From assembly GCF_964213995.1 (NCBI RefSeq), contig NW_027590123.1, positions 2,418,001 to 2,482,000 of the forward strand: a DNA stretch of 64,000 bases, in the 5' to 3' direction. The position numbers and the translations under genes were made by a program. Shown here in pieces: positions 3,950-56,974 of this stretch; positions within the stretch are counted from its first letter, which is position 1, and the number at the start of each line of letters is the position of its first letter. Under the pieces are notes generated by a model. That model was not told where the DNA came from. It searched no databases and worked only from the letters and a program-made list of their open reading frames with translations. Origin of the DNA: Mustelus asterias (Eukaryota).

Positions 3950-4640
3950 CAGTGGCTGAGCCAGGATGGGGCCGTTAACCTGGGCCTGTTCCCGGGAGGG
4001 AGGGAGGGAGAAGCCCCGCAGCTGCAAACCAGGGAGCTGACAATGATTCTGAAGGGTTTGCGGATCCTCGCAGCCACCGCCTAACGCTGACTCCGCTTCT
4101 CCGGGACAAAGGACTCTCGCTCCCGAGGCGAACAAAGGAATTGCGCATGCTCCACATTCAGACAGAGTGTCCCGCATGATCAGCCAGACCGGACTGCGCA
4201 TGTGCCAGATCGTGATGCCCCGGGGAGGGTGATTGACAGCGGCTCCGGACCAATAGGAGGGGCGGGTCTGGATGACGCGGTGGGGGTGGTGGGTGGGGTG
4301 GTTCGTCCTCCAACCAATCAGGGTGAAAAAGGGGCTCCAACTGAAGCATGCGCATTGCGGGTAATGGCGACGGCAAAGGCTTACTGCTTCGGATCCGTAA
4401 TTTGTCAGCGGAAAATCGCCGATCGGTGGGTACGATGGAACCGGCGAGTGGACGGGAAGGCTTCAGAAACCGGTTGTGCGATCTGTAAACTCCCCCCAAA
4501 ATTCTCCAATTACCCCATTTGCATCGAGCGGGTCAAAGATCCCTGAGATCGGCCCACGCGTTAACGACCTCCATCTTTATTGGGGGCAATGTGCGGCAGT
4601 GCGCATGGGTGATCGCCATCTTTGTAGGGGGCAATATTGT
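3950..4640. promoter_or_regulatory. CpG-rich putative bidirectional promoter (ZNF-A / ZNF-B)
   Basis: High CpG; NRF1-type TGCGCATG motifs at about 4142, 4195, 4346 and 4600; CCAAT boxes at about 4250 and 4314; GC box; YY1-type ATGGCG/GCCATCTT; lies between divergent ZNF exons. Confidence 0.7.
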
Positions 4641-23774: not shown

Positions 23775-23914
23775 CTGTAAAATAAAGATACAATAATGAA
23801 GCAGATGTTGATGATGCGGGACATTAATGTTAGAGTTTTTAATCAGCGAAACATTGAGAATTTTTTCAAATCCATTCTGCCAGTTTGAAATGTGAGTGAA
23901 TTGAATCATCTCAC

Positions 23915-24042
23915 CTTCACCAGAGTGACTGCAGTGCTGTAGAAAATGCTCAGGAAGAACAGCACGATGAATGTAGAAGCGGTTGTCCAGATGTTGCTGT
24001 TATCATCCTCATTGTCGTCAATCCAGACGCGGTCGGTGGAGT
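23915..24042 (-). CDS. IGHM: IgM transmembrane exon TM1 (DSTDRVWIDDNEDDNSNIWTTASTFIVLFFLSIFYSTAVTLVK)
   Basis: Acceptor cccctag|AC in phase with the Cmu4 internal donor; acidic spacer and CART motif (WTTASTF..LF.LS..YS); donor AAG|GTGAG. Absent from the ORF track, translated by hand. Confidence 0.95.
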
Positions 24043-24599
24043 CTAGGGGACGGAGACCAGGAACTAAAATTAGATTACTTTATTTATCCAAGTGATCTTA
24101 TTGTTATTTTTATGTTCCCCGTTCTCCTTTTTAGGCTGTTCATTTAATCTCGAATTCAATTTTCAATGTATAACTACTGTTAAATTCAGGACATTCAGTA
24201 ACCGATCTCCGTAACTATTTTCACACCTGATCTTTATTGACATTCCTTGGACAGTCCATGTCAGAAAACACTGAAGATGTTTAATTGAGTATCAGTTCAT
24301 TTTTGAACTATTTGCCACTATCCCTTATTGAACAATGTTATGACTGATATCGTTCACTGATCAATGATTGTTTTCACAGATGGTTACTGATCTATAAACT
24401 GTAAATGTTGTTGTTTAAGAGTTGGGATGTAATTTCCGATCTGTGCTTCTTTATGGTGGAAATAGATCATGAGCTTAATTCAGCTTCTCAACGTGTTTGT
24501 CTGTTCATTGTACATTTGGATAGTTAATCTGTGGATATGTGCATTAAAAAATCACCTTTAAATGTTACATTCATCATTTGCCTCCCGTTTGTATTTAAG

Positions 24600-26000
24600 A
24601 TCTTGCGTTTGTGTGCGTGTGCATTAATCTTTGGCTTTGAGTTAATATGTGTGCAACAGTGTTAATGTACGTGTTCATTTGCCTATGGTTGTTGATTTGT
24701 GTAGTTGTGTGTCTGCATCTGTGTGTGTATTTTATTCTTGTGTCATTGTGTATGTATGACTCTATTATTGTATGAAGTCTATGAATATTTATTAATGCCA
24801 TTCTTAATGGGTGTACATGTGTTTATGCCTATTGCTATGTGTTAATTTCTGTCACTCTAGTAATGTTTGTTTCCCTTTCTGTGTGCGTCTGTTTCTCCGT
24901 GTGTCTGTGTGCATGTCTGTTAGCAGGTCAGTATATGTATATACATGTTGATAGTTCTTTATAACGGTGTGTTGATGTATGTTTGTGTTTCGATGTGTAG
25001 TAATGTGTGCTATGGTGTTCTGTTCTGTATGAGCATGTTAATGTTTGCGTCTACATGTTTGCGTGTAAATGTTTTGCAGTCTGTTCATCTATATGTAGTC
25101 TGCTAATTTGTTTATATATATTTCCATGTGTGTTTGTTAATGTGTATAACATTGTGCGTCTTTATATCTATATTCCTGTCAGCGTGAATGTGTGCTGATA
25201 TATATATGTACTTATTTGAGTCTATGTATTTGCTTGTGTATTTATGTAGCTCTGCATGCGTGTGTATCTGTCTGTATTGTGTCTCTGCATGTATGTGTTT
25301 GTGTTTGGGTCTGTGTACCTACTCACATATGTGTCTGTGTATGTACCTGTGTGGTTTATGTGTATATGTGTACGTTAATACATATTTGATTATCTACATA
25401 TGTTGTTGTTTTAGTGCCTGTTTGTACAAGCGCGAGTCTATGTATCCGTGTGTGTGTGTGTGTGTGTGTGTGTGGAAGGGGGGGGGGAGAGAGAGAGAGA
25501 GAATGTGTGTGTGTGCCTATGTATATTTGTGTACGGATGTATTTATGTATGGGTATATTTTTGTGTGGGTGTATTTGTGTGTGTATTTTTGTTTGTGCCT
25601 GTGTTGTCCATGAGTGCATTTGTGTGCGCATTCTTGTTTCTCTGCATGTGTGTTCGTTTGTGCAAGTATTGCATGTACCTATGGTGTGTGAAAGTGTATC
25701 TGTGTGTATGCATGTATCTGTGTGTTTTTGTGCATGTGTATGTGCTGTGTATGTGTGCTTCTGTCTGTATTTGAATGCGCCTGTTCGTATTTCTGTATAT
25801 GTGCATGCATTTGTGTGTGTATTTACATGTGTCTTTCTGCATTTGTGTGCATTTTGTGAGTATGTGTATTTGTGCATTTGTGTCGATGTGTCTGTGTGTG
25901 CGTGTTTGTGTGTGTGTGTGTGTGTGTATATATATGTACGCCTATGTGTGTATTTATAATTGTGACAGTTTTGTGCGGTATTGTCAGTGTGTGTATTTTT
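24600..26000 (+). repeat. Degenerate (TG)n tract between the secretory and TM exons
   Basis: About 1.4 kb of TG-rich sequence; (TA)n at 26295-26375. Confidence 0.9.
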
Positions 26001-27126
26001 TAACCGTTGCTGCAAGTTTAACCGGCAATCATTAACTGAACGTGATCCAAACAATATGAATAATGGAGCATATTTTCAGTGTTTGATGTAGAAATTTCTT
26101 TTATGTGAGTGGCACGGTGATATCAGGAGAGCGAATGAAATAATTCATTGATGCATCTCAGAAACCTCAGTGACAGAACAGTGAAAACCGGGGAGGATTC
26201 TATTATTTGTTTAAATTTGTATCATGGGAAATCAATGCCAGCACATGATTAACAGGAACAAGAGTGTTGAAACATTTTTAAACTATGTTGCATAAGTATA
26301 TATGTATATAAGTATACATTCATATATATATATATATATATAAGTATATATATATAAGTATATGTGTATTATATACTTCAATGACACTTTGATAATGATA
26401 CTTCAAAATCTGCAGCAAGTAAACGGAAGCTAATTTGTACTGTTGACAACTGAGTCCTTATAGTAGAGAGCCGTTCCCTTCCAAACACGCTACTTGGGGA
26501 GAGGGAGGAGAGTGAGCTCATAATTTCCCTCTCTCTACCTGGTGAAGCAATGTCCCTGATGGTTCTAACCACTGAGGAGGTGGAGGTGAATGGATTAAAT
26601 AATGCCATTCCTCCTGCTTTCATTGAGGAAGTGGTGGTACATGGGTTAGCTACTGCTCCTCCCCTCTCTTTGTTGGGTGAGTAGGAATCCGGTATGTTCA
26701 CAATTTCACTCTCCCTCTCTCTGATGGGGGGATTGTTGCTCCATGTTTCTGTGTGACCCTCACTCCAGTTCCCAGTGAGTGTGGTGCAGCAGCTTAAATA
26801 TGACATCAATGCGTAAAGGCATGGACAACGAGAGAAGCAGGAACACCGAGATCTAAATGTTGTGTTTGTTTGTCAGAAATGTTGAAATTGTCGGAGTTTT
26901 CCTCAGGAAGGAAAGTCGGTGAAGATATTTTGCAGAATCCTGTAATGAATGCGCTCCACTCTGTCTCTAACACAGGGTGTGTCTGAGCTGGGCGCACTGG
27001 TTCAACAAGACTTGAACCTGAGACCTGAAAATATCTGGGTCAAACCAAAGATAGCTAATGGAAGTAAAACTGAAAAACAATCAATTAAGCGTTTGGCTAT
27101 TCCATTTGTTGTTAGAGGAAAAATAT

Positions 27127-27141
27127 TTTATTATTTTTATT
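27127..27141 (-). terminator. Polyadenylation signals for secretory mu mRNA
   Basis: Two AATAAA hexamers on the minus strand (27127-27132, 27136-27141), about 30 nt after the stop. Confidence 0.8.
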
Positions 27142-27168
27142 GAAGTTTTTAATGTTCGCGAATGATTC

Positions 27169-27560
27169 TCATTGACATGAATTAACGGTGTCCATCAGAG
27201 CAAGGGAAATGTTCACAAAACTGGGTTTACCGCTGGATTTGTCAACTGTTCTGTTGATGATCTTCAAGGGGATGGCTTCATGTCCCACCACACAGGAGTA
27301 AGAAGCGCCGCTGGACCATTCCTCTGCAGCAATGGATAACAGGCTGTACATGAAGAAGGAGCTATTCCCGCTCTCCGCGACCACCTCGGTGTTCTTATAG
27401 TTCCCAGGATTCACCGGCTTGTCGTTGACGGTCCACTTGACGAAGATCTCTCGAGGGGAGAAACGTCTCACTAAGCAGCTGAGGGAGACGAATCTCTGAG
27501 CGGAGACTTCTTCTGCCGAGGGCAGGAGGACAGAGACGAACGGTTCCCGCGGATTTGGAT
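27169..27560 (-). CDS. IGHM: IgM Cmu4 plus secretory tailpiece (…[43 protein letters not shown])
   Basis: Acceptor ttctgcag|AT; tailpiece with an N-glycosylation sequon and penultimate Cys; internal donor G|GTAAAC at 27230 for the membrane form. Confidence 0.96.
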
Positions 27561-28061
27561 CTGCAGAAAATGTACAATAAATGTCAATAAACTGGAGAAT
27601 TCTGGGGATAATGAAACTGCTGGCTAGATATCAGAAAAATGTGCTTCGTTTCGATTTTAAATGTTTCCATTTTTGACTTCCAGCTTGGAGCAGAGGTGAA
27701 CACAATTATTTTCTCAAATAACTCAGGGGGCTGGACTGGGAAGTTTCAGAAATTTTACAGCACAGAATCAGGCTATTCGGCCCAACTGATCGACTTTATT
27801 TTTGGTTTTCTGGATTTTATGCTCCACATCAGGCTCCTCCCTCGTTATTCGATCTAAACCCAATAACATCGCCTTCAGTTCACTTTTCATTCATCAACAC
27901 ATCAAATTTCCCCGTAAAAATATCTACAACCCCCAGTTTTTAGTTAGTAGAGTTTCCACTCAGGGAACACCATTAATGCACTGAATACTGAATATTGACC
28001 AGTCCACTGACACTGGAAATAGACATAGTGACGCATTTATTGCTTCAATCTCTCAGCTCAC

Positions 28062-28370
28062 CTGTTTCCTTGTGGATGGATTTTCTTAAAGGAGTCGGTA
28101 GATCCTGATGGCTCACCACGCAGTCAAACACAGCCGCACTCAGCCAGGCTTGTGTCGAGATGTTTAAGTTGCTGACCACGCTGTCAGGATCCGCTCCAGG
28201 CTTTTCAGCAATCTCTGATTTCAAATACTTCCTGTCTCGGATCCAGGACACGTTGACTCCATAAGGAGCATGAGAAATGATGCAGGTTAAGGTCACGGTC
28301 GCCTCCAGTAAGACCTGTTCTATTGGTGGTGGCTGTATCGTCACTGTGGTATCAGGGCACTGGGGAGGAT
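28062..28370 (-). CDS. IGHM: IgM constant exon Cmu3 ([30 protein letters not shown]...[22 protein letters not shown])
   Basis: Acceptor ttcacag|AT, donor G|GTGAG; open C1-set domain with the HxDLPxP motif. Confidence 0.95.
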
Positions 28371-28819
28371 CTGTGAATGAAAAATGAAAATCAACCCTAG
28401 TTCCCTCTTCAGAAGCAGGACAGCAGTCTTCAGCCTGAAGGAGACGAAGTTGCCTTCGATATATCAACCTCTAACTATCACCTTTCAACCTCTCTGGAGG
28501 ATGGAAAACCAGCCTGCTCTGTGAAATTATTCTCTTTTTGTTCAAGTATTTTAGCAGCGGTATCATTCTCATGAATCAACATTGCAGTATTCCCCAACAA
28601 ATATACCATTCCTGAACTCAGGAACCAAGTACTGGCAGTTAGTTTATAAGTAGGGTGGATGCACTTCCCAATATTTTACCCCTATGCTGTGACCGGTGAA
28701 ACAGTCCGACACCGACTGTCTCTCCAAATCTTACCAGCTGTCTCAGGAAAAAGCTGACATCAAAACCACCTCGCTCACTATGTTACTTCAAAATGGAAGG
28801 GAACACTATTTCAAGGGGA

Positions 28820-29130
28820 GGCAGTGGCATGGTGGTGTTGCCAATGGGCTTGTAACCCAGGGCACGACTCTGGGGACACAGATTCGAATCTCACCACTGC
28901 AGATGGTGAAATTTGAATTTAGTAAAAATCTATGATTAAAAGTCAAATGATCATCATGAAGCCATTGTTGCAAAAGCCCACCTGGTTCACGAATGCCGTT
29001 TAGAAAAGTAAATCTGCTGTCTTTATCTGGCCTGGCATGCATGTGACTCCAGATCCACAGGAACGTGGTTGACACTTAAGTGGCCTCAGGGATGGGCCAC
29101 AAATGCACATCTCATGAAGGAATAACAAAA
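28820..29130 (+). mobile_element. Deu-domain-like SINE in the Cmu2-Cmu3 intron
   Basis: Same family as 8478 and 54530. Confidence 0.6.
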
Positions 29131-29287
29131 ATTGATGTTGTGATGAAGTTCTGAATGGGGCACTGTCCTAATGCAGCAAACCACAGGACAATAACTTAGA
29201 AGTTATTCTATGCTTTGTACTAACTTTAATAGATCCCTAATTTCCAGTAACAGCGGAATAATTTTTTTCTCGGTTTGAGTCTCTTAC

Positions 29288-29599
29288 CCAGAGATCCGCT
29301 GATGTTCTGACTCTGAGTGAATCCTTGATGAGTGACCTGGCAGGTATAGACTACTTTGCTGAACCATTCCTGAGCGGAGACTGTCAACCGACTGCTGGCC
29401 GAGAATTTCCCGTTCACTTCACAGGCGGGAGAGGTGACAATTCCTGAATCCATGGGTTGTCCATTCTTCAGCCACTTCACCGTCATTGACTTTGGCTGGA
29501 AATCGATGATTGAACAGACGATGGTTGCAAATTTTCTGCTGGTGATTTCTTCACTGGAACTCACGGTGAGGATAACGGTTGCCGGGGGAACGGGTGAGC
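29288..29599 (-). CDS. IGHM: IgM constant exon Cmu2 ([11 protein letters not shown]...VCSIIDFQP...W...YTCQVTH...SL)
   Basis: Acceptor gttgaag|GC, donor G|GTAAG; open C1-set domain. Confidence 0.95.
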
Positions 29600-29689
29600 C
29601 TTCAACAAACAAATGTTCAGACGTTACTTGAAGATTCAATTGACACCAATTAAAATTAGTTCTTTTATTTTAGCACCATAGCTGCCGAT

Positions 29690-30425
29690 TTGAGAATTAT
29701 ATCCATGGTTTGGTTGAATTGGCAGGGAAATAGCGAATGGAATTCAACCGTCAAAAGTGCCATACAATGCATTTGGGGAGGGAAAACAAAGCAAGGCAAT
29801 AAACTGGAATGTTCAGAGGGATTGAGGAAATGCAAGACCTTGAGTGCATGTCCACAGGTCCTGGTAGATGGTAGGGCAGCTGGAAAAGTTGATCAAGAAA
29901 GCATATCGGATTAGTTCCTCTATTATGTGAGATATTGAATACAAAAACAGTGATGCAATGATGGAGCTGCTTAAAACAGAGTTAGGCCACGTTTGGAGTT
30001 TGCTGTACAGTTCTGGTCACCACGTTGCAGGAATAACGTAATGACTCTGGAGAGAGATGAGGTTTACAAGAATGTTGCCAGGGACTGAAAATTCCCGCCA
30101 TGAGGCGAGATTGGATAGACAGGGTTTGTTGTCTTTAGGAAAAGAGGAGGCTGAGGCGTGACATAATTGTGGTTCACAAAATAATAAGGGACGTAGGCAG
30201 AAATAATTCATTCCCCAAGTGGAGGGCTCAATTACCAGGGAGCATGGTCATTTAAAAGGCATCTGGGTCTACATCTCAAGTGCTTTAAGCTGCAATGCTA
30301 CGGAGCAAGGGCTGGAAAATAGGCTTACTTTGTCAGGCTAGTTTATTTGTTCTCCCTTTTGGCCAGCACAGACATGATGGACTAAATGGCCTCATTCTGC
30401 ACAGTAACATTTCTGTTGTTCTTTG
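29690..30425 (+). mobile_element. Degenerate CR1 fragment in the Cmu1-Cmu2 intron
   Basis: gttaggccacgtttggagt…gtacagttctggtcacc…aggtttacaagaatgttgccaggg. Confidence 0.7.
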
Positions 30426-30569
30426 GTTCTGAGCAACTTTTCAGTCAGTAGGCACTTACCTGGATTTTGCATAATTCAATTTTTCAGAGTGCTACAGATC
30501 AGTTATAACTAAAGCCTTATACAGTTCAATCAGAGCGTTCCTGTCTTGCCCAGGTTCCACAACACTTAC

Positions 30570-30869
30570 ATTGCATTTCAATGCTCTTGACTGAGTCGCT
30601 GTGTCGAACCTCACACTTGATTTTGCTGCACTCTCCCTCTGACTGGGTGATGGTTAACTGGCTGCTCAAGGTGTAAGTTCCCTTTGCGTTTCTCACTGAT
30701 GGATAAGTCTTAAATCCAGTGGCGATCAGCTGCCCATTTTTCTTCCAGGTCAGTTTGGAGACATCTGGAGAGTAGTCCATCGCCAAACAGCCGTAGGTGA
30801 TGGAGCCAGCGGAGTTGTGTTGCTGACAGGAAGAGACGAGGCTGTAGAGAGTGGGCGGAGACGGTGTCG
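30570..30869 (-). CDS. IGHM: IgM constant exon Cmu1 ([17 protein letters not shown]...[10 protein letters not shown]...W...CEVRH...EMQ)
   Basis: Acceptor ttcccag|CG, donor T|GTAAGT, 300 nt open; C1-set Cys/Trp/Cys plus the N-terminal Cys used for the light-chain link. Confidence 0.95.
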
Positions 30870-35460: not shown

Positions 35461-35534
35461 CCTGGCCCCAACACTGTGACCACGCGCACAGAAACAGAAC
35501 AGACATAAACGGTGCAACAATCGAGTGCCCAGCA

Positions 35535-37115
35535 GATAGATCTGTTCAATCTGTCAATTTCATTCAAACTGTTGGATTCTAATTGATCAATGGCCAACTT
35601 ACAACAACAGAAAATTAATAACCTATTTTAAATTAAACTGAGATTCATTTCAAAACTCCTTTCGACTGTTAATTATTCCTCTGTCTCACTTCTCGAAAAC
35701 TATGTAAAAATGTAATTTCGCCGAAAATGAGCAATCAAAAATAACAGATTCAGGACAGTTCAATGTCCCTAACAGAGATGCAGTGACACAGCAAGAAGTA
35801 ACCAAATCAAGAAACATTTAGATTGAAAATCATTACCTGATTAGATCTAATTTCTTAATTAAATGTACTCAACAAATTAATCAAAGCAAAACACTTTATC
35901 GAGTGAGCACAGCTGAGTAAAGTAATGTTTTGTTTCTGAATTCATTTCCGATACAATTGAATATTCTCTAAAACGGATTGTATTTTGCACGCCTGTACAA
36001 TATTCAAGGTAGTTTGTTTTGAATTAATCAGCAGCAATATTATATTTTAAGTTATTGTTAATTACTAGTTAGTTCTCCTGTCAGCTCATTTGTACTCTGT
36101 AATAAAGTGAGTTTTCAATCATTCAAAATGTGCTTCTGCCTCCAACATTGTTAAATAATTAGGTTACAATTAAATCTTAGACAATGTTAAATATAATTTC
36201 AAATTACTGAACAGAAACATTCAGACATCTGTCATTCATTTACTTAAACCTAATCACATTGTAATATTTTACTTTTTCACTTTTACTACAAATGTCTTAT
36301 TATAACCTGCAAACGTGTTAAAATTGCATACTGCTGAATATGTATAGACTGTAACGGCCTGGCAGTTTGAAATCAATAATACTGCTTCCTCGATTTAGTA
36401 ATTTAGAACATCCATATAACTTAATTACTGAGCACATTGTTTAATTAAAGAAGATCTGAATTAAACCGTGCAAACACAAAGAGGACAATTGATTCAAATC
36501 CTCTGTAACACTAAAACATGATGCAGAATGTAAGTCCAGACTTTTTCTTCATTATAATATTTAATAAGAATTTAACATAAGGTTCAGATAGAATCAATTC
36601 TTCTACTGTGTCATTTATTCTTCCCATAATTCTATCCTGTGTTCAGTAGTAATGGGAGACATGATGTTATTATCAAGTGCAGAGATAAGAATATTTTTAT
36701 AGTATTTATAATAGTATAATATTTTTATTTAAATTAATCTTTTTGAATTTCAAGCATTAACTTGCCTATCTCTAGCGAGTTTCTGTTGACACTTTACTCC
36801 AATTCAAACACAATTATGTGAACAATTGCTTGAGTGTCAGCGAATTCCACCTGTCAGAAAACTCTGTTCGCTCTGTCAAATTTATTCAAACTGTTTGATT
36901 CTAATTGATCTAAGGTCAAATTACAACTGCAAAAAAGTCAATAAAAAATTTAAATTAACCTGATGTTAATTTCAAAACTCCCTTCGCCTTTTAACTATCT
37001 CTCCTGTCTGTCTCAAATCATGAAAACTGGGCAAAAATGTATTTTTTCTGAAAATGAGCACCTCAAATATAACAGATTCAGGGTAGTGTAATGTCCCTAA
37101 CAGAGATACAGTGTC
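35535..37115. repeat. Direct repeat pair of ~255 bp (35537-35790 and 36860-37113)
   Basis: ctgtcaa…ttcaaactgtt.gattctaattgatc…aacagattcagg…aatgtccctaacagagat.cagtg in both copies. Confidence 0.85.
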
Positions 37116-37129
37116 TCTGTAAGAATTGT

Positions 37130-39290
37130 AATTCATGATTTATTTTAATATGTAAGCATCAGTTAACATGAATAAAAGCCTAAACATCTAATTATTTTAT
37201 CTTTCCGAAACCTTTTTCCTTTATCCCTGCAAGAATTTTCAAACGCAGTTTTATTTTCATTGAGCCAGAAAACGTGTAACCGCTCAGTATCACAGAGTTG
37301 AAACAATACGGAAACAATTGAGAAACACCAAACCATTTCACAAATTTTGAGATGAGATAAGTAATTAATTATCTCGGTATACAATTACAAATTACTTGGA
37401 AGGAATAATCTGATTGCGACTGCACAGAAAAAAAATGTAATAATCGGATACAGAAATTGCCAAAAAACAACGTCTTATTCTGCAAAACTCGTATTCCAGT
37501 GAGTGCGAACTTAATCTGGGATATAACGACTAATGCAAAGTATCTTGTTGAATTGGGCGCTGCTTTGGAAACAGCACGTTATCATTGAAATAGTTTCTGG
37601 AATTATCACAAAATATTTCCAGCCCAGAAACTTTTCTGGTCATTTTAATTGTGTGCAAAGCACAACAGAACTATTAGAGGTGATTAATGAATAATGATAT
37701 TAACATTTAAAAAATCTTTGGTGAATATGGAGTTATATTACCGATCAATAATTGTTTGATTTATCTTAATTTTATGATCAAATCTGTTAATGAGAAGTTT
37801 GTGATTGCAGCAATGACTTAGTGTCCAAATGAACTTTGTAAGTCATGATTTATTTTAATTTGTAAACATTAGTTAAAATTTATAAAAATGTTGTGATATC
37901 TTTATTTCATTTTTTTCCAAAACCTGCCTGTTTTCTACTACAAGGACTTTCAAACTCATAGATTCTTTGCATTCAACCAGAAAACGTGTAACCGCTCAGT
38001 GCTGCCGAGTTTAAACAATGCAGAAACAATGCGGAAACACCAAATCACTTGCAAATTTTAAACTATCATAGTGGCCGAACCACAGATCCTCCTGAACATA
38101 AACACTCCAAAGCACATCACTGAGGGAATTATTCCGCTTCATGAAGAAGCAGCTCAATTATTCCTTCAACATAATCAAATGTAACATTGCAAGAAAATCT
38201 CAATATCGAATCCAGCAAAACAGCTCGTCACCAAATGTGTGAATTATTAAACAAAACAGAAATCTGGAATAATAGCAGTAGCATTGTGAAGAGATAGAAT
38301 ATATCCAACACATTAATATGGAAACTTTACCACATTTTATTCATATTGGATCATATTTCAAACATATTTAAATATTTGGATGGTAAAAGCTGCAGCAATC
38401 ACTGAGATTTAACATTGCAGGTTAACCAAATAGTGAATGCAGTGGCAAACTATATTCTGAACAAACAGCGTAAACTGTGATTTAGTTTAACCTGCAATTA
38501 TCAATTATGATTTTCAAAAATACCAATGGAATAAAGCCTGCCTGATTTCAGCATATAATCATGCGTCAAGCAGTTTCAGACGCGAAGACTGTTTGTATTC
38601 AATCACAAAGTGTGTAACAGCTCAGTGTCACCGAGTTTAAATAATGCAGAACCGCCAAACCATTTCAAAATTTTTACTTATTCAAAGTCACCCAGACCCA
38701 CAATCTCCTCAACAGAAAAAATATACATCACTGAGCCCCGCATAATGCAGAAGCAGCTCAATTCTACAAACACTTTCAACAGAATCAAATGTAACTTTGG
38801 TCGCAAATCTCAAATTTAAATCCAGCCAATCCGCTCATCACCAAACTAATCAATAATTAAATGAACAGAAATATGTCAGAACCACACCAGCATTGCGAGT
38901 AAGCGGAATATGATCACTCAATTAATACAGAATCTTTAACACACTTTTAAAATATTGGGTTTGATTTCAAATGCGTGTGCAGCAGATGGTACAACCCGCA
39001 GCCACTAGATGTCACCGAGTTTATACACTGCAGAAACGTCTAACTGTTTAACAGAAGTTAGACAGTAACTTTTAAAGTAACCCAGCCACACAATGTCCTC
39101 CGCAGATAAACACCAAAATGCCACAACCAAGGATTGAATCCCTCAGCATCGCCTTGTCAATTAACAGTAGAATTTTATAACCCCCATTTTAAGCAGAGTC
39201 ACATGAAACATTGTTAAGATTTTTAGTACAGAATCCACCAAACCACATTTCAGTGAACGAATGAATTAATAAAATCGATAAAAAATATAA
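37130..39290. repeat. Degenerate tandem array of ~400-700-bp units just 3' of JH
   Basis: Core gtgtaacc/agctcagtg…ccgagtttaaacaatgcagaa at about 37275, 37985, 38612 and 39010. Confidence 0.8.
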
Positions 39291-39338: not shown

Positions 39339-39387
39339 CTGCAGTCACCGTCACCATGGTCCCTTGTCCCCAAGTAGTCAAAGTAGT
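39339..39387 (-). CDS. IGHJ: JH segment (TTLTTWGQGTMVTVTA)
   Basis: WGQG motif; donor G|GTAAG at 39338; preceded by a 23-RSS. Confidence 0.95.
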
Positions 39388-39426
39388 CACAGTGTCACAT
39401 TCGCTTGGCTGGGTCATACAATAACT
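39388..39426 (+). other. JH recombination signal sequence, 23-bp spacer
   Basis: Plus strand CACAGTG, 23 nt spacer, ACAATAACT abutting the J coding end. Confidence 0.93.
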
Positions 39427-39752
39427 GGCCCTGCAAAAAATAGACAGAAAAGCCGCCATTATTTTAAATATTCACAAACCTGAGGAAAAGCAAAGTCAAT
39501 TAATATTCATGAGATTATTATTGTATTTGTGGATACCGTTCGCTCTACATAAATAACCCTTATGTTTTGTATTTCACCGGGTATCACATGAACATGTTAT
39601 TGAAAACACCAAATGATAATTGAATAGTTATCATAAATTTTCCATTTGATTCTCGCTGTTTGTACAGAGCTGGACATAAATAATACAGCACTGCAAATAA
39701 TGTTGGATGGTAAAACAGAGCACTGACCCAGTCTCGGTCAATTAGTGCTGAG

Positions 39753-39818
39753 GGTTTTTGTATTGACAGTAACTGATGTGCCACCCCTATCACAGTGACA
39801 CACACTCGCACAAAAACT
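39753..39818 (-). other. DH segment (coding 39781-39790, ATAGGGGTGG) flanked by two 12-bp-spacer RSS
   Basis: Minus strand: AGTTTTTGT-12-CACTGTG | ATAGGGGTGG | CACATCA-12-ACAAAAACC. Confidence 0.92.
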
Positions 39819-40190
39819 GCACTTACTCTCTGTTCAGTATTGCCGCTCAATATTCACTTCAAATAGACCATTATTCGTGATGTAAATTACACTTCATGCA
39901 ACAGTTTACAAAACACAATCTAAAAACATCTCCTCCAAGTATCAGAAATATTAAAACGAGCGTTATATCCAGGTGTGTAATTGCTGAAACTGTTAACAGT
40001 AAATATAAACAGAGTGAAAAGCTCAGCCCATTATGTCTGTGTGTTTTCTTGGTTTAATGTTTAATTTTCACTAAGTTGGGTTTGTCAGAAGCAGTTGGTG
40101 TTTTGCTTCTGATCACTGTCGTTAGTGTTATATTTAAAACAGATACTGACCTTCAGGTTATGATGAAAGTTGCAGAATTCCCTCTCGAGC

Positions 40191-40229
40191 TGTTCTTGTT
40201 CGGGTCCATCCCTGGTTCCTCTCGCTGTG
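40191..40229 (-). other. VH recombination signal sequence, 23-bp spacer
   Basis: CACAGCG, 23 nt spacer, ACAAGAACA immediately 3' of the V coding end. Confidence 0.93.
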
Positions 40230-40534
40230 ATCTCCTGCACAGTAATAGATGGCGGTGTCTTCGGTCTTCAGCCTTGTCATGTCCAAAGAGAAGATGTTGG
40301 TTGAAGTGTCTTTGGACGCAGTAAATCGATCCTTAATTGCTGGGGCGTAGTTGTTGCTGGATGAAGTATAGTACCACACCAGCCACTCCAACCCCTGTCC
40401 TGGAACCTGCCGGATCCAACCCATGCCATAGCTGCTAAGATCGAAGCCGCTGGTTTTACAGGTCAGTTTCAGGGAGCCTCCTGGACGCCCGGTCTCTGCC
40501 TCTGGCTGAGTCAACACAACCTCCGACTGGACAC
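40230..40534 (-). CDS. IGHV: Ig heavy-chain V segment exon, intact ([42 protein letters not shown]...[10 protein letters not shown])
   Basis: Acceptor ttttacag|GT; both canonical Cys, WIRQ, GLEW and YYC motifs; open frame; followed directly by an RSS. Confidence 0.97.
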
Positions 40535-40666
40535 CTGTAAAAATCGATCAAAAAACCCGAGGATTAATCCTGGTGTAATGATTTTTGACTCTGGAATATT
40601 ACAGAGATGGACTAAAACTGAGACAGTAACTGTGGGAGACTTAGACAATGAAAAATAACTACTCAC

Positions 40667-40712
40667 CGGATAAGAAAGTCAGCAACAAACTGAGAGAAAT
40701 CGCCGACCTCAT
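40667..40712 (-). CDS. IGHV: IgM VH leader exon (MRSAISLSLLLTFLS-G)
   Basis: ATG at 40712; 46-nt hydrophobic signal-peptide exon ending in a phase-1 donor G|GTGAGT; short intron to the V exon. Confidence 0.95.
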
Positions 40713-40794
40713 CCTTCTGGTAAATTGGGGGAAATGGTTGTGTCAGGAACTCAGTGAACAAACCAACTCCCGGACTGTTGGATTCCGGTCCCAG

Positions 40795-40870
40795 TGAGCG
40801 GTATTTAAATACCCGGCAGAAGGGGGCGGCTTTCCAAGCGCCGCCTGTTGATTCCCTGCTGGAGGCGGTA
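40795..40870 (-). promoter_or_regulatory. VH promoter: TATA-like GTATTTAAATAC and GC box
   Basis: Palindromic TATA-like box at 40801-40812, about 90 nt upstream of the leader ATG; GGGGGCGG just upstream; no octamer seen nearby. Confidence 0.7.
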
Positions 40871-42159
40871 ACTGGATCCAGGTCCCACCTTCCACACCCC
40901 AACAGAATGGACTCCCAGATTTACAATAGGTTAATATTAAAATGGACATTTTGTCTGTGTCGGGATATTTGTTTGGCTGAATATGTCCATTGTATTGTCT
41001 CCATTATTGCTGATGGTGATATTGCAGTTCATCATTTCTTTATTTAAAATAACTAATTCCATTGTAAATATGGTGATTTTATTACCACGCCCCCAAGAAG
41101 AACACATCTAAAAATGATGAAATAACATTTCGGAAAATAAAGAGACCGTCAGTCTGACAATTCCGGGTCTCTGTCACATTACAAAAATAAAGCATAATTT
41201 ATCAGAAGAATTTTTACCGATTTCTGTAACTAAATGAGGAGTATAAACAAAGTGATTGCATTTACAGTGCGGATGGCTATCACTGTACAATTTGGGTTTG
41301 GAGATGAGAAGAAACTCTCACACAATACATTGTTTCTCCTTATATTTGTCAAACTGCCCCAATCTCGAAGACAGCCCTTTGAAAATAATAAGAATCGCGC
41401 CCTCCTGATAATTAAATAGTGAGTTGACAGAGAAACATAAAATTAACATCGACTTTTGACAGAGAAGTTAATGAATGGAACGGACACGGAGATCACTAAA
41501 GTTTTCCTTCAGCATCCAGATCATTGCAGGTCACTCTATCGGCCACCGGCTGTCTAACATTCGCTGGTATTGCGAACACAAGATATCAGGGCTTTGCGGC
41601 ACATTGCACAATATCACAAGAATAAATGTTTTATCTTCCATTGAATCAGGTTATGAACTGATCATTTCTCCACTCATTGGCAGCTATGATTGAAACTCTT
41701 CAATAACAGGAATCAGATTATACTGTACAATAGAATAGGGTGTTAATCAGGTATAAGAGACGCTGCTGTTTAAGTGTGATACAGAACGCTCAGAATATTC
41801 CAGGAGTTCCCGCTGTTCATGTCAGTTTTATGATGTTCCCTTAATATTATTTCGATGCATTTTATGCCATTGCACTGATTTCAATTGACTGGGGAATTGG
41901 GACCATCAGCATCTCTCTCTCGCATTTCATGAAGTGGTTAATAAACTGACTTTAATTTGTGGAATGGCATTTACTTGGAAGTTATACAAATGAAAAAGCA
42001 TCTGGTCACTTTATTGTTTTGCGATACTATTTACTCACATAATGAAGAGGCCATTGAATGAAAATATTTGATTAGAATGATTACGATTTAAAATGTGTCT
42101 TTCTTGTGGGAATGAAACAATTATTGTTTAAATGCTGAATCGCATTTTGTCCATTTAGG

Positions 42160-42385
42160 TTCACGCTAATCTGTCCCACACAGTATTTGGCAGCAATCCA
42201 GCCTTCTGCCAAATGCTCAAAGTTATTGACAGGAAGCATCTGGGGGTGTTGCGCAGCAGAACAAAGATCTGTTTCCTCAGTACTGACCGCTTGGCTGCAA
42301 GCCAACTTAAAACCCTTCACATTGTCAATGAGGCCTATTTATAAACAAATCTACCCAGCAACAGTACTGGAGGCACTTTAATTTT
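42160..42385. promoter_or_regulatory. Candidate IgH upstream enhancer (copy 1)
   Basis: ACAGGAAGCATCTG (Ets plus E-box), perfect NFI site TTGGC-N5-GCCAA at 42291-42305, MEF2-type CTATTTATAA, FOX-type TAAACAAA; 44-bp exact identity with the paralog. Confidence 0.5.
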
Positions 42386-43764
42386 TAAAAGTTGTAAATC
42401 TAGATGAATTTTTCCCATCTCTAATGAAAGGAAAGTTATGCAGCTTCTCGGGCACCCTGTTAGCAACAATGATGATTTTTCCAACACATCAGGATATGGT
42501 GTTAGATGGATAGAAAGAATTACAGGCAAACTGAGAGATGTCTCAGAGAGACGATACATGAACATGTTTGTTTGTATTTTCTTTCCCTTTATCTTTCCAT
42601 GGGATGTTTGGTTGCAAAGACCGGCACTTTTTGTCTGTCCCAAATTCCCTTGAACTGACTGGTTTTCTAGGCCACTTCTGAAGATATTAAAGAGTCAGCT
42701 ATTTTGCTGTCCATCTGGAGTCACATCCTTGTGAGACCAGGTAGCGATGGCAGATTTCACTCATTGGGGAATCAGAGAGGGTCCGATGGTCGCCATTAGC
42801 ATCTGTTCCATATTTATTAATTGAATTCATATTCCACCAGCTGCAATGCTCCGATTTAAATCCCTGTCCCCACATCATTGTCCTGGGTCTCTGGATCACT
42901 GGGCCACTTCAATTAATATTACGTCACCATCTGTGCAAACAATAAATGAATGACTGTGTTGATGAAGGAATGAATGACCGTTGAATGAATGATATGAATA
43001 TCAGTTGGATGGCTGAATATTTTGATTGAGGAATCAGTGAACGGATTGATGGATGCATTGTTAAATGGTACTGAAAGATGCTGTTCCACATTCCCAGATT
43101 TGTACTTGACTGGTTCATAAATTGAAACAGTTCCTTGATTCCATTTCTGTCAGTCTAATAACTTCAATAACTTCCAGAGGGTCTGGGTGAAATCAAACCC
43201 GATTTTCTCGGGAGTTAGCAAGCTGATCCTCATGAAAAGAAGAGGGGATTTTCCTGCGGCACGGATGGTTCATTTCTCTGCTGATGCTGAATATTCATAT
43301 CCAAGATCGAAAGAGGGAACATGATTTGGCTGAGGAGGGAGGATTGTAATATTTGAAACATGTGCAGCAAATCACTCAACATGCCCTCACCCAAATTAGT
43401 GAAGGTAACAAGCTGTAAAATAAATAATGTGGCAACAGATATATTGTGAAACTCACTGGACAACTACAAGGTTTACAATGTTTCCCAAAACAGTGTAATA
43501 ATGAATCGGGATTTAAAAATTCAGTAAAATAAGGTGCAAGGTAGTTTAATTTATATAATCACTTTGGAAATCATCACACCAGTTATGTATCAGGAGTTTA
43601 AAGCGCAGAGACTGCTGGGTAGCGACTCATGATCCTCAGTCTGAATTCATTCAATTTCCCACTGCATTCTGGGACAGGTTTCTATCCTTGGTGACAAAAA
43701 GGCCAATACAATGTCAAGAAATGTTAATATCAATAAATTATTCAAAGCAAAATTGTATAGAACG

Positions 43765-53254: not shown

Positions 53255-53776
53255 GAATCTTCGGTTTTCAGTTATTTCCAAAGAGACGATTTCGTTTGAA
53301 GTATAAAAGCAAATTACTACGGATTCTGGAATTGAAACAAAAAGAGAAAATGTTGGAAAATCTCAGCAGGCCTGGCAATATCTGTGAGGAGAGAAAATAG
53401 CTGACATTTCGAATCCAGATGACCTTTTGACAAAGTTTTGACAAAGGGTCATCTTTAATCGAAAAGTAAGCTCTTCTCTCTCCTTCCAGGTGCTGCCAGA
53501 CTTGCTGAGATTTTCCAGCATTTTCTCTTTACTTTGTTTGAAGTGTCTTCGGGTGGAGTAAATTGATTCTGTATCCTGGGGCGGAGGAATTGTAGGCTGA
53601 CTCAAGACTATCGTCCTGAAGAAGAGACTTTAAACACTGTTCAGGGACCTGTCGGACCCAGACCATCCAGTTACTGCCAACATTGAACGCGTTGGCTTTG
53701 CAGGTCAGTCTCAAAGAGTTTCAGGGACACCCAGTTTCTGCCTCTCGCTGAGTCAACACAACCTCCGATTCGACAC
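53255..53776 (-). pseudogene. IGHV: VH pseudogene ([40 protein letters not shown]…), interrupted and truncated
   Basis: Clear FR1/FR2 homology to the functional VH; acceptor AG mutated to AA; in-frame stop; FR3 (…SNEIVSLEI…KTED) resumes at about 53255-53300 after an insertion; no YYC or RSS seen. Confidence 0.9.
53303..53535. mobile_element. Palindromic Penelope-type insertion in the VH pseudogene, 9-bp TSD
   Basis: Flanked by GTTTGAAGT at 53294-53302 and 53536-53544; long internal inverted repeat. Confidence 0.75.
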
Positions 53777-53804: not shown

Positions 53805-54120
53805 ATAAAACGCCACGCACTCCGGACATACTCGCTCACCTTTTTCCATCGGGAACAAGATACAAAAGTCTGAGGATACGTATAAACCGACTCAAAAACA
53901 ATTTCTCGCCTGCTGCAATCGGACGTTTGAATGGACCTACGTCGCATTAAGTTCATCTTTCTCTACACCCCACCTATGACTGCAAAATTACATTATTCAC
54001 TCTCTCCCTTCCTTCCCTATATACGTTATGCTCTGACTGTATCGTGAGCAAGAAACAATATTTTGCACTGTGCACTAATATGTGCGATAATAATAAGTCA
54101 AATGAAATCAAATGAAATAT
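53805..54120 (+). mobile_element. Rex1/Babar-type LINE 3' end inserted in the leader-V intron of the pseudogene
   Basis: Translates to PSGTRYKSLRIRINRLKNNFSPAAIGRLN-like C-terminus; (aaatg/aaatc)n tail; intron homology resumes at 54121. Confidence 0.7.
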
Positions 54121-54529
54121 ATCAAAAACACCAAGGATTATTCCCGGTGAATTGATTGCTGGCAATGGAACATTCCAGAGACAGACTAACACCGAGGGAG
54201 TAACAGTGAAATCCATTGTCATGTCTCTGCTAGTCCAAGAGGTGAAATTGCATTTGAGCATCTGTTAGAGAAAAGAAACAATTTCATTGTAAATTAAGTG
54301 CCTTTATTTCGTCACCCCTTCACAAGGGAATGGACATAAACAGATGACATTACATTATCAGGGTAAAGATGTCAGTCTGATTTGCAATAATTCTGTGTCT
54401 CTAACACATTACAGCGAAATATAATTCATTAGAAGAATTATTATCGATTTATGTAACTTAATGCTGGGATGATTGTGTTTCAGGTGTGGATAGCTATCAT
54501 TGTAATTTGGGACTGGATATAAGAAGAAG

Positions 54530-55140: not shown

Positions 55141-55982
55141 CTAATAAATTAACAAAATAAACTCCTTATCTGATACAATGTTACACCATATATTTTCCCA
55201 ACAGCTCCTTAACCCTGTGAAAATTAACGGTGAAAGAAAACTTCTTGACTTACAATTAAGCATTGAGTTGACAGAGAAACACAAATTTGACATTGACTTT
55301 TAACAAAGAAGCTAATGAATTAGAACGGACACGGCAATCAGGAAAGTTCTCCTTCAGCATCCAAATCATGACAGTTCATTTTATTGGCGAGCAGCTGGTA
55401 TTGGGAACACAAGATATCAGGACTTTGCGGCATAATGCACAATATCACAAGAATAAATATTTTATCTTTCACTGAACCAGGTTATGAACTGGTCATTTCT
55501 TCGCTCATTGGCAGTTATGAGAGGGACTGTTAAATAATCGAAATCAGATTATGCTGGACAAAAGAACACGTTATACATCAGGTATAAGTTTTTAATTAGG
55601 TTCAGAACATTGAGAATATTCCAGAAATTCCCGCAGTTCAAGGCAGATATATGATTTTCTTTTACTTTTAATTATTTTCATTTTTGTGCCTTTACACTGA
55701 TCTCATGGGACTGAGGGATTGGGGACATCAGCATATTTTTCTTGCACTTCATGAAGTTGTTCATAAAGAGGCTTTAATTGTTGGAAGGACATTTCTTTGG
55801 AAGCTATACAAATGAAATAGCATCAAGTCAATTGACTAGTTTCCGATACATTTTAATCACATAATGAAAAGTGCATTCATTTAAAATATTTGTTTCGAAG
55901 GAAAAACATTTAAAATGTGCCTTCCTTTTGGGAATAAAACATTTATTGTATAACTGACGAAGTCCCATGTTATCCTTACAGA

Positions 55983-56210
55983 TTCACGTTAATCTGTCCT
56001 ACGCAGTATTTGGCAACTGTCCAGGCTGCTGCCAAATACCCAAAAATATTTACAGGAAGCATCTGAGGGTGTTTGTTCAGTAAATCAAAAACCTGTTTCC
56101 TCAGTACTGAACACTTGGCTGCAAGCCAACTTCAAACTCTCAGCATTGTCAATGGGGCCTATTTATAAACAAATCTACCCAGCAACAGTACTGGAGGCAA
56201 TTTAATTATT
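55983..56210. promoter_or_regulatory. Candidate enhancer (copy 2, upstream of the VH pseudogene)
   Basis: Same motifs retained: NFI at 56115-56129; identical block at 56156-56199. Confidence 0.45.
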
Positions 56211-56974
56211 TTTAAGTTGCAAACATCTATGAATGTTTCCCATTTCTTCGGAAAAGAAAGTATTCAGCTTCTCTGGCACCTTGTTAGCAACAATAATGAT
56301 CTCTCCAACACAAGAAAACATTGATGGATGGATATTAAAAAAATACCGGCAGATTATGAGAGGTGATTCAGAGAGGTGATATATTTTATACTAGATAAAC
56401 ATCTATGCTTGTGTTTTCTTTCACTTCATTCTTCCATGGGACGTGAGAATCTCTGGAAAGGCCAACATTTATTCCCTTTGCCTAATTTCTTTTGAACTGA
56501 GTGGTATGCTAGTGCATCTCAGAAGGCATTGCCCAGTTAGTTATATTGCTGTCCGTCTGCAGTCACATCCTGATCAGACCAGGTAGGGATGGCAGATTTC
56601 CTTCATTGGGGAATCAGAGAGGTTTATCTGGTCGCTGTCAGGACGTATTCCAGATTTATTGATTGAATTCAAATTCCAACAGCTGCCAGGGTCGGATTTA
56701 ATCTCGTGTCTCCACATCATTGGCCTGGGCTTCTGGATTACTGGTACACTGGCATTAATATTACGCCACCATCTACTCAGCAATAAAGGAATACTTGCGT
56801 TGATGCAGGGATGAACGATAGTTGGATGCCTGAATGTTTTGCTTGAGAAATCAGAGAGTGGAGGGATGGATGGGACGATAGCTGGTCCAAATATTTGCTG
56901 TTCTACATTCGCATATTTGTGATTTACTACTTCAAAAATCGAAGCAGGTCCTTTATTCCAAGTGTGTCAGTATA

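Follow-up and report, generated by a model that had tools for sequence, protein, structure and literature searches.

The block analysed here is most readily explained as a putative cis-regulatory module of a shark VH upstream unit, kept under constraint and duplicated together with that unit, which would make it a candidate upstream activator of the VH; we give this reading a probability of about 0.5. In the window, by which we mean the whole 64-kb stretch of DNA, the block occurs at both of the two VH flanks and nowhere else. The placement of substitutions between its two copies supports the conclusion that they avoid transcription-factor motifs. The feature is real and probably constrained, and it likely functions in cis in one way or another, a neutral or repeat origin, taken jointly, being rather unlikely.

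The earlier note on this DNA had placed the block in an immunoglobulin heavy-chain setting, and protein matches bear this out. The VH exon shares 87% identity with a VH-like protein of Chiloscyllium punctatum and 83% with one from Scyliorhinus torazame, and the best 8 of the 26 matches listed are all from sharks (71-87% identity). Four constant exons were recognized as open frames at ∼30.9-27.2 kb, the last of them having its best structural matches mostly among IgM constant regions. Because the last constant exon and the VH matches point to IgM and to a shark, we assign the locus to a shark IgM cluster, a single minilocus on the minus strand.

A consensus scan found no octamer near the functional leader and TATA region, the window's matches lying only at 4517, 51561, and 60607. 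The VH promoter itself (40800-40850) has a palindromic TATA-like box with a GC box further upstream, again with no octamer. Only one D, with 12/12 signals, lies between V and J (39753-39820 and 39840-40190), and a permissive RSS scan gave nothing convincing as a second. In the JH, the YFDY codons (39372-39373) stand one base out of frame relative to the WGQG motif, which would be either a true one-base insertion or an assembly error; in-frame joining is still possible. The J-C intron (35533-39110) contains internally duplicated units with 68-79% identity, in which a 15-base motif is retained at 37274, 37986, and 38612, and these repeats are a rival candidate location for an intronic enhancer. 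Immediately downstream of the transmembrane exons, at 2.7-21.2 kb, sits an array of C2H2 zinc-finger genes, several of them interrupted by stops.

The VH and ∼5 kb of its upstream flank have a collinear duplicate, a chain of segments pairing ∼40.3-45.65 kb with 53.5-62.3 kb. The VH beside the second copy had been described as a promoterless pseudogene, and both parts of this description hold: the VH is dead, and copy-1 sequence 40635-40985, which carries the leader exon and TATA box, has no counterpart there, a leader query matching only itself. We read this as deletion of the leader exon and TATA region of copy 2. Among the tblastx matches listed, no D, J, or C belonging to the pseudo-VH was found in the window. 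Over 53613-53765 the pseudo-VH has W33, K46, and L49 in common with a Chiloscyllium VH (P0006), residues absent from the neighboring VH, and it may therefore come from a different VH family rather than being a simple tandem copy.

Several other features of the duplicated region were recorded. A SINE-like repeat present in both copies is 76.8% identical between them over 311 columns and was used as the neutral control level. Reverse-transcriptase-like LINE copies lie at 48.0-50.2 kb and 57.0-59.7 kb; a long, well-preserved LINE separates the pseudo-VH from copy 1 of the block, and other insertions interrupt the copy-2 flank. Another conserved flank patch, at 41575-41690, reaches 86-90% identity in 100-column windows with an HMM posterior of 0.76 and retains a GATA site and an NFI half-site/CCAAT.

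Table 1. Coordinates of the locus, of its duplicated upstream unit, and of the motifs in the block (window positions)
Feature	Position	Strand	Evidence or remark
C-mu 1-4 with secretory tail and transmembrane (TM) exons	23890-30865 (boundaries approximate)	-	Open frames; TM exons read from sequence
Single D (core 39781-39790, 12/12 RSS) and JH with 23-spacer RSS	39339-39820	-	RSS scans
VH exon, intact open frame; 23-spacer RSS at 40229	40230-40534	-	Protein matches and RSS scan
Functional leader exon and palindromic TATA-like box	40667-40813 (ATG 40712; box 40800-40813)	-	Translation and promoter sequence
Core of duplicated upstream unit	41410-43157 (partner 55254-56974)		79.1% identity over 1693 ungapped columns
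Block, copy 1	42160-42385		30 mismatches in 226 columns; K2P 0.148, against 0.276 outside
Inverted NFI half-site pair (TTGGCA 42187, TGCCAA 42207)	42181-42217		Conserved arms, variable loop
Ets core CAGGAAG adjoining CATCTG E-box	42229-42242		0/14 mismatches
GGAAA core (minus strand, Ets/NFAT-like) and first CAGTACTG palindrome	42269-42286		0/18 mismatches
Perfect NFI/CTF palindrome TTGGC-N5-GCCAA	42291-42305		Consensus scan, both copies
Near-palindrome CATTGTCAATG	42320-42330		1/12 mismatches over 42320-42331
44-bp invariant run: overlapping MEF2/TATA/FOX-like site, then second CAGTACTG	42332-42375		Exact match
Old dispersed SINE-like repeat, in both copies	42620-42930		Matches at 8.5-8.7, 28.9-29.1, and 54.6-54.8 kb
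Pseudo-VH fragment	53534-53776	-	Acceptor AG changed, FR1 stop, indels after FR2, FR3 truncation, no RSS
Copy-2 leader-intron remnant	54115-54208	-	75.5% to 40541-40634
Block, copy 2	55983-56210		∼2.3 kb upstream of pseudo-VH, ∼15.4 kb upstream of functional ATG

Identity over the block is 86.7%, compared to 77.0% over the 3058 other aligned non-coding columns, with a K2P of 0.079 for the sub-block 42269-42375. The 44-bp match reported earlier (42332-42375 = 56156-56199) is exact and maximal, and the distance of "about 1.5 kb" from the leader corresponds to 1448-1673 bp upstream of ATG 40712 on the minus strand. On the full alignment, scan-corrected permutation gave p values of 0.029-0.068 for identity windows of 50-226 columns and of 0.006 for a run of at least 44; restricting the test to the core duplicate gave 0.034-0.093 and 0.011. 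Given the block's own mismatch rate, the run has a p of ∼0.05. The 50-column bins of the core were not significantly overdispersed (p 0.099), and a two-state HMM on the 1693-column core gained +1.8 lnL for 3 parameters, which is not significant, and was flat in the constrained-state rate. The sliding-window comparison proposed in the earlier note showed a peak, but one that lies near the variance of the duplication, which that note had itself named as grounds against its reading. The identity peak by itself is moderately above chance. As a check on constraint above the neutral flank, library-free tests gave p values from 0.006 to 0.19 and motif-aware tests from 0.001 to 0.01.

The first alternative to be weighed is that the block is a neutral remnant, simply the stretch of an old duplicate that has survived best, left so by chance or by short gene conversion at the 44-bp run, with the motifs chosen afterwards. 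We consider this unlikely. It is consistent with window p values of just 0.03-0.09, with the lack of significance of both the bins and the HMM, with the modest p of the run at the block's mismatch rate, and with an unremarkable motif density. The last of these had been considered as evidence for the element and was rejected, as the block reaches no higher than the top 2-8% of windows, a level that several LINE or zinc-finger windows equal. Against it stand the unbroken state of the perfect NFI palindrome and of both NFI half-sites, the motif-retention tests (p 0.001-0.01), and the diverged spacers that flank every kept site, which are described below.

All five motifs quoted in the earlier note are present in both copies (42229/56052, 42269/56093, 42291/56115, 42335/56159, and 42342/56166). 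None of the first four recurs elsewhere in the 64 kb, and the FOX-like 8-mer has 8 occurrences in all. The inverted NFI half-site pair at 42187/42207 is absent from that list; its arms show 0/12 and 0/9 mismatches and its loop 5/13, and it forms an inverted repeat in both copies. The CAGTACTG palindrome occurs twice in the block, 84 bp apart, and the near-palindrome CATTGTCAATG contains a putative SOX-like core. A perfect TATAWAWR lies on the minus strand at 42336-42343, overlapping the MEF2 site. Matches to the MEF2 consensus are common, with 12 in the window compared to 4.1 expected, and the NFI palindrome is rare, with 2 matches compared to 0.04 expected from shuffles.

Not all of the labels given to these sites fit well. 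The "PU.1-like" label is too liberal, as neither GGAA core fits the PU.1 consensus RRGGAAS. The CATCTG E-box is not of the CASSTG subtype, which E12/E47 prefer (PMC3972084). The full dyad corresponds to the NFI consensus TTGGC(N)5GCCAA given in PMC3610271. A consensus scan of 42160-42385 found no EICE, NF-kB, octamer, EBF, RUNX, PU.1 consensus, or CASSTG E-box. In copy 2 only, an EICE consensus follows the block at a distance of 50 bp (56250-56260), its copy-1 counterpart (42425-42435) having one mismatch, at the first consensus base.

The position of the substitutions was compared with a list of 30 consensus motifs, which was fixed after reading the earlier note and includes its motifs and is thereby biased; motif columns were defined from copy 1 alone, and the comparison involves two copies only. 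Inside the block, 3 of 68 motif columns are mismatched, compared to 27 of the 158 other columns (Fisher p 0.0096), and no such protection of motifs is seen outside the block (74/338 versus 629/2720, p 0.63). Copy 2 keeps 11 of 13 motif instances in the block and 19 of 68 outside it, although overlapping motifs inflate this count, the non-overlapping kept sites numbering 7. A simulation that preserves the overlaps gave a scan-corrected p of 0.0007-0.0013 for motif retention, and moving only the block's own 30 mismatches gave 0.006. The real list outperformed all 600 of 600 letter-shuffled lists.

Seven kept segments have 1 mismatch in 128 columns and the five spacers between them 25 in 67, with boundaries that were drawn post hoc. 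Since the spacers between the kept sites have diverged, selection on the sites is favored over conversion of the whole tract. Without the motif library, clumping of mismatches in the block is borderline, with a p of 0.02-0.19 over five statistics; a grid HMM gave 0.067, and a test of run lengths within the block 0.06-0.19. Clumping is absent from three flanking segments (p above 0.4), the corresponding range for the SINE-like control being 0.08-0.49.

The backbone of the retention signal is the NFI sites, given that one dyad and the half-site pair are intact and that leaving the NFI motifs out raises the scan-corrected p to 0.097. The corresponding p is 0.18 for the motifs not named in the earlier note and 0.10 for the Ig-enhancer motif set taken from PMC3972084 alone. 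This opens a second alternative, that the block relies on NFI to act as a chromatin barrier or a priming site, shielding the minilocus from repeat-rich silent chromatin, or that it is a module used outside B cells. NFI is associated with chromatin boundaries and positioned nucleosomes (PMC3610271), LINEs lie nearby (48-50.2 kb and 57-59.7 kb), and either copy could do such a job with no gene of its own. NFI is also widely expressed (PMC3610271), and in the mouse Nfix falls as B cells commit while its ectopic expression blocks early B-cell development (PMC4363787); a reading of the block as a B-cell activator is weakened by both facts. A pure barrier, however, would have no need for the Ets, E-box, and MEF2/TATA sites, which are equally invariant here, and we regard this alternative as decidedly doubtful.

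A third possibility, which we hold to be improbable, is that the block serves as the TATA promoter of a non-coding or sterile transcript lying upstream. Read on the plus strand, Ets, GGAAA, and NFI (the last at about -70) are followed by the TATA-like box, and the invariant run ends ∼40 bp later, so that the layout has the span of a core promoter directed away from the VH; on the minus strand, the perfect TATAWAWR is directed towards the VH. The 44-bp run comprises the TATA match at 42336-42343 and the next 32 bases, which exceeds the recognizable motifs. Sterile shark IgH transcripts are reported in PMC5192425, but according to the same review promoters appear to be tied to V segments only, and the block has no conserved reading frame, stable fold, or Rfam family.

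That the block is a piece of an old dispersed repeat, a palindrome-rich transposon relic within the duplicated flank, is very improbable: it does carry a number of short palindromes, along with an inverted repeat of 10-12 bp, and the neighboring sequence from 42400 onward matches dispersed repeats, but a search of the 64 kb with word size 7 finds no third copy, unlike the SINE- and LINE-like families, which recur many times in the window. Three further candidates were rejected. A coding exon was set aside because the copies have no shared reading frame, owing to a one-base indel at 42248, and a tandem repeat because no tandem array crosses the block. A structured RNA was set aside for want of an Rfam match or unusual stability: Rfam gave 0 matches at gathering score, the 2 seen at chance level falling outside the block, and fold stability had z scores of 0.58 and -1.06 (minus strand only).

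The pseudo-VH provided a clock for the history of copy 2. Nine shark VH proteins, two chimaera sequences being excluded, defined codons unchanged in functional genes, and codons were dropped where the residue of the pseudogene occurs in a relative. Of the 70 non-degenerate sites in codons common to at least 8 of the 9 relatives, 14 are changed in the pseudo-VH (0.20, CI 0.11-0.31), with 10 of 59 in codons 1-51 under the same criterion; fully invariant codons give 5 differences in 42 (0.12, CI 0.04-0.26). Half of the flank divergence is 0.138, and since the pseudo-VH rates are close to this value, the death of the pseudogene would date back over much or all of its branch. If copy 2 were neutral, its 68 motif columns should then have accumulated ∼8-12 changes, compared to the 3 observed, a deficit with a p of 0.005-0.14 depending on the clock and of 0.026 using half the flank rate; these values come from a block selected for its preservation (a winner's curse) and from two copies only. 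The deficit weakly suggests that copy 2 remained constrained after its own VH died. Short gene conversion from another cluster could also produce the 44-bp run, and the HMM, being flat and not significant, gives no library-free proof of constraint on copy 2.

The clock has its own uncertainties. The high G+C content of the VH exon may speed up its decay. Between VH and pseudo-VH, 7 of 14 four-fold sites differ, exceeding the divergence of the flank, which makes the clock uncertain and points in the opposite direction to constraint on copy 2. If neutral divergence were as high as dS, much of the flank itself would be constrained or converted. The dN/dS of VH against pseudo-VH (0.18/0.72 over FR1 and FR2), which would suggest a long shared function, was rejected in favor of the invariant-codon clock, as it involves few sites and is inflated by transitions. 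There is no excess of tandem substitutions in the pseudo-VH (15 observed, 15.3 expected).

Returning to the constrained module as the preferred reading, we propose the following mechanism. NFI, at one full site and two half-sites, would keep a region of positioned, open nucleosomes, in which Ets, E-protein, and MEF2 factors could then bind. From a distance of 1.4 kb, the bound factors would switch on or prime the VH promoter, which has no octamer, the block acting as an upstream, promoter-distal enhancer for its own minilocus. Both copies would have been selected for at least part of their history, and copy 2 perhaps beyond the death of its own VH, the weakest step of the proposal. We infer this mechanism from the motifs shared with vertebrate Ig enhancers, whose core parts include E-box, MEF2, and Ets sites (PMC3972084), and from the promoter-enhancer model for sharks: shark IgH genes are octamer-less, and a lineage-specific promoter-enhancer holocomplex has been proposed for them (PMC2435157). 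The E-box, Ets, and MEF2 sites all lie in the block and are invariant in both copies. The use of only two copies and of a post hoc list of consensus motifs counts against the enhancer reading, and so do the missing EICE, NF-kB, octamer, EBF, RUNX, and CASSTG E-box consensus sites and the intronic or 3' location of known Ig enhancers. A more far-reaching version, in which the block is an octamer-independent enhancer present once per cluster, its infrequent assembly underlies heavy-chain exclusion, and copy 2 is a shadow enhancer 15 kb upstream, strikes us as distinctly speculative.

Shark IgH genes are organized as many small independent clusters, of which only one to three rearrange per B cell. 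The block offers a concrete sequence, a ∼200-bp element with base-level footprints, for the question of how a shark minilocus is activated, and makes that question testable; if it were neutral or a general NFI module, it would be ordinary duplicated flank. It is best filed as a candidate Ig-locus cis-regulatory module of an already known type. In its Discussion, PMC2435157 invokes an enhancer in its model without naming an enhancer sequence, the word "enhancer" is absent from the available text of PMC5192425 and PMC7677710, and in the part of PMC9936319 that was available cartilaginous fish are mentioned for gene organization only. Among the literature matches listed, no title or opening of an abstract describes a shark IgH enhancer and no shark B-cell ATAC study appears; as most of the subscription literature lies beyond this search, novelty is provisional.

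Compared to known systems, the block is closest to four. As in the nurse shark IgM minilocus (PMC2435157), it belongs to an octamer-less V-D-J-C cluster for which the model requires cis elements at the level of the cluster; the functional nurse shark IgM genes have two D segments, whereas the cluster described here shows one (PMC5192425). With promoters and boundaries bound by NFI/CTF (PMC3610271), it shares the perfect TTGGC-N5-GCCAA dyad and half-sites near the edge of a gene, but it combines NFI with Ets, E-box, and MEF2/TATA sites. Like the mammalian IgH intronic enhancer E-mu, it has Ets sites beside E-boxes and could be a candidate for opening the locus to recombination; E-mu sits in the J-C intron and carries octamer, YY1, and PU.1 sites (PMC3972084), and the block contains none of these consensus sites. 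With the Ig-lambda enhancer/DIVAC of chicken, mouse, and human (PMC3972084), it has in common a compact module of E-box, MEF2, and Ets-family sites with poorly conserved spacers. In contrast to that element, the block, still a candidate at the level of sequence, has no NF-kB or PU.1-IRF4 composite site, is rich in NFI, and lies 5' of V and not 3' of C.
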